From the IMG/VR virus record IMGVR_UViG_3300022839_000011, positions 24,701-88,700 of that record: a stretch of DNA of 64,000 nt. The stretch is one strand, 5' to 3'. Origin of the DNA: a virus. The first letter of the stretch is position 1, and each line of letters starts with the position of its first letter. Below the pieces are notes generated by a model that had not been told where the DNA came from, did no database searches, and saw only the letters and a list, made by a program, of their open reading frames with translations. The position numbers and the translations under genes were made by a program. This document shows positions 4,511-34,037 of this stretch, piece after piece.

Positions 4511-5491
4511 TTAATCAGCGTAGTATATTTCCACACTGTCATCTTTGTATGATGTGCTGTCCATTTTCCACTTTGCATAAAACTGTGTTGGTTGATTCAT
4601 TTTCACCCAATCTTTAACAGCAGCAAGTGTTGGTTTTCCTTTTGCTCCTACAGAGCCTTTTTTAGCTTTAGCAGTGAATTCTTTTATTTTCTTTAGCGTA
4701 TCAAGTTGCCGACCAAAAGGTTGTTTGAAAAATTCGTTATCTGCGCCATTCAAATTTACCGCATAGCTGAATCCATCGTTGCTACCGAACACGGTTTTAG
4801 GCATCTTGGCTTCAAACATGTAGTCTTCTTTGGCAAATTGGAAGCTTGCATTTTTCATAATATTTTGCAGACCACCTACTTGTGCTGGTGTGAATGAATC
4901 ATTTTTTGCATAAAAATCTACAAGACCTTTTCCAAATGCTTTCGACTTTGCATCTTTGCCATTCGCAGCAAGTGACTTGGCGGCTTTTAGGACTTCTGAA
5001 TCATCCATCTTGGCTTCATCAAGACTTTCTTTTAGATTTTCGATGTTCCAACCACGAAGCCATGCTTTCATGAACTCTATCTTAGATTCATGTGATGCCG
5101 TACGCAAAATATCCGACAATGCAGGGTCGAGAACAGGAGCGTTGATCCCAGATTTGAATGCGTTGGCACCCATCTGTTGATACTTTTTAGTTTCATCCGT
5201 TGTAATTTTATACTTTTTGGCTTCATCAAGACTTTCTTTTTTGATTGCTTTAGCAATTGTTTTTCTGCGATTATGTAGATACTCATCTGAATCATCTTCA
5301 TCACCGTCATTGTCAATGTCTTTGTCGTCGCGGTCTTTAAAGTCTTTGCTAAGTTCTTTGGCGTCTACAGCATCGAGTTTCTTTTCTTCTAATGCAGTTT
5401 TAATTCTTTCATTAATAGCTAATGAGAATGCTTCTTTTAAGCCAATTGGATTAGATGCTATACTTGCGATTATTATATCTTTAAGTGACAT
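4511..5491 (-). CDS. modular internal head protein
   Basis: Repeated ESLDEAK and MFEAK putative prohead-protease sites; DKDIDNDGDEDDSDEYLHNRRK motif. Confidence 0.6.
   Translation of the reverse strand: MSLKDIIIASIASNPIGLKEAFSLAINERIKTALEEKKLDAVDAKELSKDFKDRDDKDIDNDGDEDDSDEYLHNRRKTIAKAIKKESLDEAKKYKITTDETKKYQQMGANAFKSGINAPVLDPALSDILRTASHESKIEFMKAWLRGWNIENLKESLDEAKMDDSEVLKAAKSLAANGKDAKSKAFGKGLVDFYAKNDSFTPAQVGGLQNIMKNASFQFAKEDYMFEAKMPKTVFGSNDGFSYAVNLNGADNEFFKQPFGRQLDTLKKIKEFTAKAKKGSVGAKGKPTLAAVKDWVKMNQPTQFYAKWKMDSTSYKDDSVEIYYAD
5010..5240. repeat. 24-bp direct repeat (5010-5033 and 5217-5240) encoding KESLDEAK
   Basis: ttggcttcatcaagactttctttt occurs twice. Confidence 0.85.
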
Positions 5492-20799: not shown

Positions 20800-21102
20800 C
20801 CTTTTTATTAAAGTTGGGACTTGGGTAATACGGCGTCCCTGACCGCAAGAGATTATGCTGCTAGGCGCATCTCTGGTTTTGCATTAGTATTTGCATTTAG
20901 TGTTTTATTCGCGTTAACCCAGCTTATATCGGGGCAACTCCATCCTGCTTAGTCCGTTTGTCGATCCCATTTCATCCCCAGCATAGATACATTGTTACAC
21001 TCATTTAAGAATAATGATATTAAAATATCACCAATGTATCTATGGTGGAGATGTCGGCTTCGAAGCCGAGTCCAAACCGTATTCAGTGAACTTCAACGTC
21101 AC
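20800..21102 (-). ncRNA. ssrA: circularly permuted two-piece tmRNA; tag ANTNAKPEMRLAA (20853-20894); outer ends approximate
   Basis: Acceptor piece ends ..CATCTCCACCA (21043); intervening segment with TAGATACATTG/CAATGTATCTA stem; coding piece starts GGGGATG (20979); G3-U70 pair; tag ends LAA. Confidence 0.93.
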
Positions 21103-24653: not shown

Positions 24654-25141
24654 CCAGAAAATAGCTCTTCTAAACTCATGACAGTGCCGATAGGGTATTG
24701 ATATCTTGTATTGACAATACCGACGCCCAATTTACCTGAATATGTTACTGTGTAACCTTGAATAATTTCTGCCAGCTCGCACACTATAATTGTTTCGCAT
24801 TGTTGTACATTTTGATACCCCATCAAAATGTTATTGCCATCAATCGAACCAATTAAAGAACCTATCACCACTCCAGCAAACGCACCACCATCGTCATTGG
24901 TCGCCAATTTACCTAAAACGCCACCTATGATGGCACCAGCAAGAATGTCACCATTACTAGAACGGTTATTTTGGTACACCGGAATACTTACGTCATAACA
25001 TCTTGTTTCTGGAACTTCGAGATGCCCTATCGTGTAATTGGGCGCTACTTCCATTATACGAACAAAAGTAAATGCATCAAATGCATTTACTTTTGTTGCA
25101 AAAATACATAAAGTAGCGATTGCCGATATTTTTTTAAACAT
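24650..25141 (-). CDS. glycine-zipper 2TM secreted protein
   Basis: Signal peptide; GAIIGGVLG..GAFAGVVIGSLIG. Confidence 0.7.
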   Translation of the reverse strand: MFKKISAIATLCIFATKVNAFDAFTFVRIMEVAPNYTIGHLEVPETRCYDVSIPVYQNNRSSNGDILAGAIIGGVLGKLATNDDGGAFAGVVIGSLIGSIDGNNILMGYQNVQQCETIIVCELAEIIQGYTVTYSGKLGVGIVNTRYQYPIGTVMSLEELFSG

Positions 25142-27585: not shown

Positions 27586-28029
27586 TTATTCGCCTGTATA
27601 GGATTTGAGCATCCATTGCATTTTTTCGTGGAACTGAATTTGCGTTTCAAGAGTCGAAGTTAATCCTCTTTCCCCCAGTTCATCTGCAATATTTACCACT
27701 TCATTAAGCTCTTGTGTCAATAACATATTATCAGAAGCTAATCGAATTAGCATAAATTTTGGGCTTGGCACTGCAATTTCATCAGAAATAAGCGAAAGTT
27801 CTGAAAATCTTTTTAGCGAGCCTGGCGCATATGAGTCTAAAGCCCTGATGTGCTCTGCATATATATCTACTGAGTTATGTAAGTTGATATAGAATTCGGA
27901 AAAGAATCTGTGATACTCACTAAAATTTTGTCCTGTAACGTTCCAATGATAATTATGCGTTTTTAGATACAATGAAAAAGTAGTTGCTAATACGACTTTT
28001 AGGCGCTCTACTAAAATTGATTTGTCCAT
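27586..28029 (-). CDS. dps: Dps ferritin-like protein
   Basis: KTHNYHWNVTG..YHRFF..DIYAEHIRAL..HEKMQWML. Confidence 0.92.
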   Translation of the reverse strand: MDKSILVERLKVVLATTFSLYLKTHNYHWNVTGQNFSEYHRFFSEFYINLHNSVDIYAEHIRALDSYAPGSLKRFSELSLISDEIAVPSPKFMLIRLASDNMLLTQELNEVVNIADELGERGLTSTLETQIQFHEKMQWMLKSYTGE

Positions 28030-29471: not shown

Positions 29472-30227
29472 CTAGCGTTTTCGCTTGAAGCACCTATCTT
29501 CGTAAAAATCTTTCATATGGCGTTTCACCCATAAGTTAACTTTCGGAGGAGTAATTCCAATGATTTTTGAAACTTCTGAAACCCAGCCAAATTTGCTAAA
29601 ATCTATATCGCTGTTTTCTACAGCAAGTATAACTGAACGGTATTTAATGTCCGTTTTCATTCTATGCTTCACACCAGGTAAAAGCGGTTTTTTTGCTTCC
29701 TTAGCAATTACTCTTTTCCTTTGCGTTTCAAAATACTCAGAATAATCTGGTTGTTCGCCAAGTTCTATAAGTTTTAGTACGTTGTCAGGATAGAAACATT
29801 GTGAATAGTGTATTTCCAATATTTTCCAACCTGCGCCTTCTATTTTATTGTGCCTCTCTTGATAATAATCACGCAGTGACCAATCGGAATTGTAATGCTG
29901 ATTTCCGTTTATTTCAATACCAAGTTTAATGTCAGGAAAGGCGATGTCTATGGAATAACTCATATCATCTAACGGAATCCACTCCTCAACAAATGATATG
30001 TTATTTGCTCTTAAAGCTTCCTTAATTTTTTCGCATGGCACTGAAACAAATTTGTCTCTTTGACGCCAAGGATGTTTGTCAGGGTTTTTCTTTAGGAACT
30101 TCTTTCGCGATTCTGATATTTTTTGCTTGGTTTCAGGTGAAACAATTTTCGCACACTTTATTGAACAGTATCTGCTTCTTCTTTCAGAAAATTCTGTATG
30201 GCATCTTAAACAATTTTTTGTTTTCAT
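29472..30227 (-). mobile_element. putative homing endonuclease (Vsr/DUF559-like PD-(D/E)XK domain with NUMOD-like N-terminus)
   Basis: YCSIKC, ETKQKISESRK, IDIAF..GIEING.QHY..GWKILEI; in tRNA cluster. Confidence 0.75.
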
Positions 30228-30273
30228 TCGAACCTCTGTTTGTATTATTTATATAAACGGGGGTTCGAATGAA
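30223..30273 (-). promoter_or_regulatory. start-codon-sequestering hairpin with a late promoter (30246-30253) at its apex
   Basis: TTCATTCGAACC/GGTTCGAATGAA inverted repeat covers the SD and ATG; TATAAATA inside. Confidence 0.8.
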
Positions 30274-30289
30274 ACGTGTATTTTAATTT

Positions 30290-30368
30290 TGGCGCACCCG
30301 GAGGGACTCGAACCCCCATCGATCCAATTACGGTACTACCGCTTAGAAGGCGGTTCCGATACGGGTGC
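30290..30368 (-). tRNA. atypical tRNA-Arg(TCT) with displaced D-arm
   Basis: GCACCCG/CGGGTGC-G-CCA; ACCGC-CTTCTAA-GCGGT; canonical T-arm; only 7 nt between acceptor and anticodon stems. Confidence 0.75.
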
Positions 30369-30377
30369 AGCAGAATT

Positions 30378-30416
30378 AAAAAAGTCCATTGCTCTATCCA
30401 ACTGAGCTAAGGTGCC
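30378..30416 (-). pseudogene. orphan tRNA 5' half, broken at the anticodon
   Basis: GGCACCTTAGCTCAGTTGGATAGAGCAATGGACTT; no 3' half follows. Confidence 0.7.
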
Positions 30417-30492: not shown

Positions 30493-30576
30493 TGGAGGAG
30501 GTCGGACTTGAACCGACAGTGCTGTTAAGCGTTCCGTTATGAGCGGAAAGGGGATAACCAATTTTCCTACTCTTCC
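30493..30576 (-). tRNA. atypical tRNA(CAT) with long variable arm and no encoded CCA
   Basis: TTCCG-CTCATAA-CGGAA; GTCGGTTCAAGTCCGAC; flanks form an extended inverted repeat. Confidence 0.75.
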
Positions 30577-32541: not shown

Positions 32542-32618
32542 TGGCAGGAGCAGCGGGAATTGAACCCGCGTCGCAAGGTTTTGGAGACCCGCATTTTTCC
32601 AATTAGTACCACACCCCT
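32542..32618 (-). tRNA. tRNA-Trp(CCA)
   Basis: CTCCAAA loop, G73, CCA; weak D-stem. Confidence 0.85.
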
Positions 32619-33350: not shown

Positions 33351-34037
33351 TTATTTAATTTCTGGAAAAAGACATTCTTGTATAAATGTTTTCACATCTT
33401 CTTCGGACAATCCCAAACTAACCATTGTTTTAGGTGTATGTGGGTTTTGCTTCTGATAATAGGCGTAGCGATTTTGTGCTTCTTGCACCGAAATTGTATC
33501 AGATGTATCGTTAGTTTTTCCTATACCCAAAAGATATTTATCTATGCTTTTGTAACTGACTTCTACAATCTGATCAATCTCTTCTGTATTATTTACATTA
33601 CCTGCTGCAATCATATGGGGGCTAAAAATAGCTTTTGCCCAATCTGGTAGATCGCGTTTCTTTCGCCATTCTAAACTATCAACTTCTTCACCAAAATTGA
33701 CAATCATTTCATGTTCAGTATCTACGCTTGCAGAATAATCATGAAAAAATCCAGTAATTTTATTTTTGCCTGCAATTACATCAAGACCGAAAATGGGGCC
33801 ATTATTGTGTAGGTGTGGAAATATGCAACAATGCATCATCCAAAGACCTTTTGTATCTCTAACATCTACTACATCAACGTGTGCGCGACGATAGTTTTCG
33901 CTGATCCATACTCTATTGACCCAGTTTGGTTTATTAAACTGCGCCATGCCTTTTTCAAATACTTCATGTCCATCAGATTCAAATCTTTGAACTAACCTAT
34001 CTTGAATACCGACAAGTGCATCCCAAACTTGACTCAT
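33351..34037 (-). CDS. pcyX: ferredoxin-dependent bilin reductase, PcyX/PcyA-like
   Basis: RRAHVDVVD..LWMMHCCIFP..PIFGLDVIAG..FHDYS..LPDWA.IFS..Q..Y..QKQNPHT. Confidence 0.88.
   Translation of the reverse strand: MSQVWDALVGIQDRLVQRFESDGHEVFEKGMAQFNKPNWVNRVWISENYRRAHVDVVDVRDTKGLWMMHCCIFPHLHNNGPIFGLDVIAGKNKITGFFHDYSASVDTEHEMIVNFGEEVDSLEWRKKRDLPDWAKAIFSPHMIAAGNVNNTEEIDQIVEVSYKSIDKYLLGIGKTNDTSDTISVQEAQNRYAYYQKQNPHTPKTMVSLGLSEEDVKTFIQECLFPEIK

Follow-up and report, generated by a model that had tools for sequence, protein, structure and literature searches.

To our knowledge, the cloverleaf is treated as universal for tRNAs that work on bacterial ribosomes; the known exceptions, mitochondrial tRNAs of reduced size, depend on partners adapted to them. 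Pan, Gutell and Uhlenbeck (Science, 1991) reportedly engineered circularly permuted versions of yeast tRNA-Phe, the tertiary fold of which tolerates moved chain breaks, including breaks in the D loop and the variable loop. Among natural molecules, the mitochondrial tRNAs that lack a D arm (metazoan tRNA-Ser(AGY) and nematode tRNA-Ser) are described in PMC4013460 as functional molecules that, shrunken to as little as about 54 nt and devoid of the D-loop/T-loop contact, depend on mitochondrial factors adapted to them. In Cyanidioschyzon and some green algae, according to PMC3978253, circularly permuted genes encode the tRNA parts out of standard order, with the 3' half before the 5' half, and processing restores the cloverleaf. 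Here we describe a phage tRNA-Arg(UCU) gene with a split D arm, the layout of which, as judged from sequence, would be a new structural variant of tRNA; no description of it was found in full-text literature searches, which took in two reviews of non-canonical tRNAs (PMC7609411, PMC7954030).

The gene lies at 30290..30368 on the minus strand of a 64,000-nt stretch (the window; positions 24,701 to 88,700) of the IMG/VR virus record IMGVR_UViG_3300022839_000011, which is 88.7 kb long and has a CheckV completeness of 42%. The G+C content of the DNA is about 36%, and the long ORFs are nearly all on the minus strand. With its tRNA cluster, two-piece (permuted) tmRNA, bilin reductase and ferritin-like gene, the genome fits a large marine phage; a megablast search of the 4 kb surrounding the rewired gene against cultured phages returned just one 37-nt match. 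The tmRNA (20853-21102, minus strand; Rfam RF04321, 91.8 bits) is of the two-piece kind typical of Alphaproteobacteria, cyanobacteria and marine phages. The ferredoxin-dependent bilin reductase-like ORF (33351-34037, minus strand) and the ferritin-like ORF (27586-28029, minus strand) are situated in or near the tRNA cluster and look like auxiliary metabolic genes of a marine phage. ARAGORN leaves the rewired gene uncalled and calls ten other tRNAs in the same cluster, between 29.3 and 37 kb; four calls in the cluster are tRNA-Met(CAU). Two low-scoring tRNA matches were also noticed on the minus strand, one at 30493-30576 (38.9 bits, with a CAU anticodon and a poorly paired D stem) and another at 32545-32618 (33.3 bits), the latter uncalled by ARAGORN.

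Read on the minus strand from 30368 to 30290, the gene consists of 76 nt plus an encoded CCA: GCACCCG / UAUCGGA / ACCGC CUUCUAA GCGGU / AGUACCGUAAUUGGAUCGAU / GGGGG UUCGAGU CCCUC / CGGGUGC / G / CCA. Its acceptor, anticodon (UCU) and T arms are perfect, as the original prediction had stated with correct coordinates. GCACCCG (30362..30368) forms 7/7 acceptor pairs with CGGGUGC (30294-30300; with discriminator G73, 30293..30300), the anticodon arm ACCGC CUUCUAA GCGGU (30338..30354; anticodon at 30345-30347) has a 7-nt loop with U33 and A37, and the T arm GGGGG UUCGAGU CCCUC (30301..30317) has a canonical T loop. These parts agree with the cloverleaf in having a 7-bp acceptor stem, a 5-bp T arm with a UUCRANY loop and a 5-bp anticodon arm with a 7-nt loop. 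The D stem-loop hairpin between positions 9 and 26 is absent. Only 7 nt (UAUCGGA, the predicted TATCGGA) separate the acceptor stem from the anticodon stem, and the anticodon arm is followed by 20 nt, where a class I tRNA has 4–5 nt. This region is neither a class I variable region nor a self-paired class II arm, a hairpin within it being unsupported; the D-loop-like sequence that had been predicted to follow the anticodon arm is indeed found here, and its D-loop residues are conserved across the family described below.

The pieces can be assigned as follows, all on the minus strand. U8 A9 (30360..30361) are invariant in 125/125 aligned members, TA at this place having been a requirement of the pattern scans and of the parse. 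They are followed by U-CGG (30356..30359), a putative stand-in for the 3' strand of the D stem (positions 22–25), and by an A (30355) equivalent to position 26, the one base that separates the D-type helix from the anticodon stem in 124/125 aligned members. Beyond the anticodon arm there is a linker AGUA (30334..30337), which would correspond to positions 44–45 and a turn back to position 10 and which is 3–8 nt long in the family, with a final A in 105/120. Next come CCG-U (30330..30333), the stand-in for the D-stem 5' strand (positions 10–13), the D-loop equivalent AAUUGGAUCGA (30319..30329), with A14, A15, G18 G19, A20 and A21, and a U (30318) equivalent to position 48, the Levitt partner of A15 (30328). 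The D-loop residues A14, R15, G18G19 and A21 together with Y48 accordingly sit between the D-type helix and the T stem (AAUUGGAUCGA-U, 30329..30318). In the family as a whole, the 5' linker runs U8 A9, then Y22 C23 G24 G25 and N26, and the 3' segment runs C10 C11 G12 U13, A14 (invariant), R15, 0–3 variable bases, G18 G19 (GG nearly invariant), A20, a few bases, an A and the last base before the T stem; the penultimate base of the segment is A in 183/184.

The rewired gene shares with canonical class I tRNA-Arg(UCU) (RF00005; loci L536, L538 and L543) the 7-bp acceptor stem, the 5-bp anticodon stem with its CUUCUAA loop and the 5-bp T stem with a UUCGANU loop, as well as U8, A14, R15, G18G19, A20, A21, Y48, G/A73 and CCA; the acceptor stem of L536 (GCACCCG/CGGGUGU) is nearly the same. 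It differs in that the 3' strand of the D stem precedes the anticodon arm, with the 5' strand and the D loop placed beyond it, so that the D stem encloses the anticodon arm and the four-way junction of the cloverleaf becomes a three-way junction. A missing D hairpin and a short connector between acceptor and anticodon are likenesses to the D-arm-lacking mitochondrial tRNAs, but the phage RNA is 76 nt long, has all D-loop residues, G18G19, a canonical T loop and a covarying D-type helix, and presumably works with ordinary bacterial factors. Parts encoded out of standard order recall the algal permuted genes; in the phage gene, however, the acceptor strands are at both gene ends with CCA at the 3' end, there is no sign of processing, and the permuted core would be present in the mature RNA itself. 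Whereas the engineered tRNA-Phe is an artificial permutation of the whole molecule with new 5' and 3' ends, the phage tRNA would be a natural case, in which the D/anticodon domain is permuted internally and the ends are normal.

Such a gene is easily overlooked. The Rfam tRNA model (RF00005) matches 30293-30368 (minus strand) with 39.1 bits, the gathering score being 29, and its alignment deletes the D arm and accommodates 17 inserted nt in the variable region. With a covariance model derived from 120 relatives (R1), the rewired gene scores 95.4 bits (E = 4e-28), a match far beyond chance, and the ordinary tRNAs of the window score at most 27 bits. In the GenBank records of cultured phages with a rewired gene, the site is unannotated in 3/4 and labelled tRNA-Ser in 1/4. 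As gene finders mostly miss the family, Arg (and Ile) tRNAs are undercounted in phage tRNA repertoires and codon-compensation analyses. When the 79-nt sequence was folded alone, its minimum-energy structure (z = -1.45) had a broken T arm and showed no tRNA structure; it was discarded as uninformative for a tRNA.

Pattern scans revealed the same layout in at least 184 distinct sequences from viral contigs and a few bacterial genomes; the parse was blind to structure and yielded 187 candidates, of which 184 were left after a pairing filter. An exact 20-nt probe taken from the 20-nt region retrieved divergent copies in which changes in the acceptor and T stems compensate each other. In two scans, only UAYCGG, the anticodon loop and GUUCRA were fixed and the 20-nt region was left free; they detected 120 distinct sequences with good acceptor and T stems; the free region of all 120 has the motif N(3-8)-CCG-U-A-R-N(0-3)-GG-A-N(1-7)-A-U. 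Further scans fixed the linker as UAUCUC or UAUCAC with the 3' segment free, and a descriptor scan left the 5' linker free; all of these brought up variants of the linker triplet. The 184 members comprise 178 Arg tRNAs (UCU 138, CCU 24, ACG 11, CCG 4, GCG 1) and 6 Ile tRNAs (GAU, UAU), so the rewired layout is not limited to arginine. UCG members were added by covariance-model search. Two or three rewired Arg isoacceptors can occur in one phage (e.g. L171, L139, L123). Cultured carriers are Agrobacterium phage Atu_ph04, Stenotrophomonas phage SOVA965, Limnohabitans DC31 and Alishewanella Slicko01, and these phage-host pairs allow direct tests. The Ile members, which have U after G18G19 and A73, are located at L199:396-472, L484:9034-9110, L337:2298-2374, L503:4514-4590 and L416:4482-4558, and in L420 (minus strand; outside alignment A2). 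A rewired tRNA-Arg(UCG) at L180:3407-3493 carries about 12 extra nt in the D-loop-equivalent strand, which may form an additional small hairpin.

Covariation among the phage homologues was analyzed in an alignment of 125 members (A2) that was fitted to the model; the relevant triplets, however, abut invariant anchors (UA, UAR), and a structure-blind regular-expression parse gives the same triplet table. In this alignment the acceptor, anticodon and T stems are 94–99% paired (acceptor pairs 98.5%, all seven covarying; T stem 99.3%, covarying; the 5-bp anticodon stem covaries as well), and the canonical stems contain 776 double-change cells vs 202 in shuffles. The rewired helix joins the three bases after U8-A9-Y to the three bases before U-A-R and encloses the anticodon arm; its copy in this gene is CGG (30356-30358) with CCG (30331-30333). 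The first sequence set had an invariant helix (CGG:CCG) and was therefore uninformative on pairing. In the family, the triplet pairs are CGG:CCG 137, CUC:GAG 17, CAC:GUG 16, ACC:GGU 3, CCC:GGG 3, GCC:GGC 1 and UCC:GGA 1, and in the scans with a variant linker (UAUCUC, UAUCAC) the partner triplet, in the free 3' segment, is the exact complement. The helix is 98.1% paired vs 64.8% in shuffles, with a covariation score of 0.724 vs 0.135 that 0/500 shuffles equalled, a result to be read with the helix having only three standard pairs and the covariation perhaps reflecting 5–8 independent changes and not hundreds. Shifting the partner by 1–3 columns lowers pairing to 29–36%. The middle pair is GC in 72 members, AU in 17, UA in 17 and CG in 14, with none unpaired, and RNAalifold independently predicts the same helix. 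The Levitt 15-48 pair also covaries (AU 103, GC 11, other 6), which brings the covarying elements of the family to all four helices and this pair. The proposal that the upstream CGG pairs with CCG beyond the anticodon arm is thereby borne out.

The D domain looks complete but permuted, in the order 22–26, anticodon arm, 44–45, 10–21, 48, and the layout would amount to a circular permutation of the D/anticodon domain. In the proposed fold, the chain would lead from the acceptor stem through U8-A9, the D-stem 3' strand (U-CGG) and position 26 into the anticodon arm, and from there through the D-stem 5' strand (CCG-U), the D-loop nucleotides (A14, A15, G18, G19, A20, A21) and U48 into the T arm. 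Because CGG and CCG pair across the anticodon arm, the D stem and the anticodon stem would be joined into a single continuous arm of a three-way junction, with the "D loop" as the junction strand that runs to the T stem. The residues of the core and elbow are all retained: U8-A14, 15-48, G18G19 for contact with the T loop, and the ArgRS determinant A20. Of the claim that an L shape is rebuilt with permuted strand order, the strand order, the D-arm parts and the helix hold, the last on the strength of covariation; the conserved residues make the usual L shape the most likely outcome. The family would then demonstrate that a tRNA core of different chain topology can keep every tertiary contact, and that such tRNAs are common in phages; its members would also be natural scaffolds for the engineering of orthogonal tRNAs.

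In E. coli, the identity set of bacterial ArgRS consists of A20, the classical determinant, C35, and U or G at position 36. The rewired gene has these elements, A20 in the sequence GGA and C35 and U36 in the anticodon UCU. Across the family, the base after G18G19 is A in 171/178 Arg members and U in 6/6 Ile members, and A73 is present in all Ile members; with A20 kept in the former and U in the latter, the RNA appears to be selected as a synthetase substrate. The gene is positioned inside a tRNA cluster. No other Arg tRNA occurs in the 88.7-kb record, and among the Arg codons of the window ORFs AGA is the most frequent (188/447, 42%). The split-D-arm gene is a real and strongly conserved phage gene. 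We consider it likely that in a large marine phage it encodes a functional elongator tRNA-Arg(UCU), which reads AGA (and probably AGG) and belongs to a widespread family of non-cloverleaf phage tRNAs; charging by the host ArgRS and function on the host ribosome would most likely follow.

The surroundings of the gene bear on how it came to be there. Thirteen nucleotides upstream is an orphan 5' half of a canonical tRNA-Arg(UCU) (30382..30416, minus strand), broken in the anticodon loop: GGCACCU-UA-GCUC-AGUUGGAUA-GAGC-A-AUGGA-CUU..., that is, an acceptor strand, a D arm and an anticodon-stem strand. It is identical over 28 nt (an exact 26-nt query match, with identity extending 2 nt further) to the full-length canonical tRNA-Arg(UCU) of L536, L538 and L543, GCACCCG UA GCUC AGUUGGAUA GAGC A AUGGA CUUCUAA UCCAU AGGUC AUAGG UUCGAAU CCUAU CGGGUGU A CCA. 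A matching 3' half was looked for, and no complementary acceptor strand (AGGTGCC) was found within 3 kb. L142, L131 and L211 likewise have orphan 5' halves immediately upstream of the rewired gene. An orphan canonical half without its 3' half and with the rewired gene adjacent suggests that a canonical tRNA-Arg(UCU) gene at this site was disrupted and that the rewired gene replaced it. A split or intron-containing gene made up of the orphan half and the rewired gene was rejected, since the 3' strand is absent within 3 kb, other members lack the half, and it matches canonical genes, as expected of a remnant. In the close relatives L003 and L014 the orphan half has a T-to-C change in its D loop and seems unconstrained. 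Just past the rewired tRNA of L004, positions 4823-4870 (...UUCAAAUUCUCCCAGAGGCACCA) resemble an orphaned 3' end from another broken tRNA, comprising T loop, acceptor strand and CCA.

On its other side, the rewired gene precedes an ORF of 251 aa (29472..30227, minus strand) that resembles homing endonucleases (PHROG HNH/homing endonuclease families, E about 2e-6; a weak Pfam match to REase_MTES_1575) and may be a mobility partner. Homologues of this ORF adjoin the rewired tRNA in L004 and L005, the one in L004 being 50% identical and on the opposite side of the tRNA, and SOVA965 has an annotated HNH homing endonuclease the end of which is 3 nt ahead of the rewired gene. A hairpin at 30220-30274 (minus strand; -21.3 kcal/mol, z -6.3), the 3' arm of which holds the AUG of the 251-aa ORF, looks like translational masking, as is known from homing endonucleases of phages. 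Pfam matches among 140 ORFs located no more than 250 nt from a rewired tRNA were HNH_2 15, HNH 7, HNH_3 4, MTES_1575 3, PDDEXK_5 2, HNH_5 2, DUF559 2 and SegE 1, vs HNH_3 6, HNH_2 3, HNH 3, DUF559 2, Endonuclease_7 1 and PDDEXK_5 1 among 140 ORFs by other tRNAs of the same loci. This excess of HNH-type matches is about two-fold, modest and only suggestive, as the family counts can overlap. Given the orphan canonical half-tRNA and the endonuclease-like neighbour, the local evidence points more to gene replacement, perhaps by an endonuclease-driven mobile cassette, than to the evasion of host tRNA-targeting toxins that the original prediction had suggested. The layout might even be adaptive at the DNA level, as a functional tRNA-Arg gene that escapes homing endonucleases cutting canonical tRNA-Arg, the endonuclease and the rewired tRNA spreading together as a cassette at the expense of resident tRNA genes, which it would destroy and replace; this scenario, which would make the Arg and Ile members a class of non-cloverleaf tRNAs working on ordinary bacterial ribosomes, is conceivable and we advance it tentatively.

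The same evidence could be taken to mean that the RNA folds as described without being mainly a decoder, either as a decoy or substitute of tRNA shape that eludes the tRNA-targeting nucleases of the host or as a nuclease-immune allele of a homing cassette, translation being secondary. The broken and replaced canonical tRNA-Arg(UCU), the orphan halves at the other loci, the endonuclease-like neighbour and the roughly two-fold frequency of HNH-type matches within 250 nt would all suit such a role, and phage tRNAs are known, from PMC10264068 and PMC11555353, to counter tRNA-cleaving defences. However, neither a pure decoy nor a DNA-level immunity allele would need the ArgRS identity elements (A20, C35) and the normal anticodon loop that are conserved here, and the endonuclease enrichment is modest. 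We regard a role of this sort as unlikely.

A second alternative is a functional tRNA that truly lacks a D arm, as mitochondrial tRNA-Ser(AGY) does, with no equivalent of the D stem and with either a variable-arm hairpin (CCG-UAAU-UGG) or an ATCG:CGAT pairing in its stead. Both pairings can be drawn on the single sequence, the second having been offered as an option in the original prediction, and tRNAs without a D arm do function in mitochondria, as PMC4013460 reports. In the family, by contrast, the hairpin is 75.0% paired vs 74.3% in shuffles, its first pair being broken in 49/120, shows no covariation and was rejected, and ATCG:CGAT fails likewise, being 64.5% paired vs 61.6% in shuffles with no covariation; it is the CGG:CCG-type helix that covaries instead, which renders a D-arm-lacking fold very improbable. 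Finally, the orphan tRNA fragment 13 nt upstream, the missing ARAGORN call and the low Rfam score of 39 bits might suggest a functionless pseudogene, decayed or recombinant, as the by-product of a rearrangement that left an orphan half-tRNA, but 184 distinct sequences share the layout and show compensatory changes in each helix, close relatives keep the rewired gene identical while the orphan half has a substitution, and the gene supplies the only Arg tRNA of a record in which AGA is the commonest Arg codon, so that decay is hardly credible.

A cellular scan, with one genome per species, found 24 members, several of them on MAG contigs with large tRNA arrays. A host core gene was ruled out for the Rhizobiales: a canonical tRNA-Arg(UCU) is also present in 5/5 tested genomes of carriers, and the rewired copy occurs in only 2/150 other Rhizobiales genomes, as befits a sporadic accessory gene. 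The family is mainly viral, and its cellular copies are sporadic. Chromosomal rewired tRNA-Arg(UCU) genes were seen in the Rhizobiales isolates Brucella cytisi (L297), Manganibacter manganicus (L320), Gellertiella hungarica (L346) and Devosia elaeis (L298). The Brucella cytisi copy is beside housekeeping genes, and the copies of Manganibacter and Gellertiella, the latter with three, have a tRNA-Pro(GGG) nearby.
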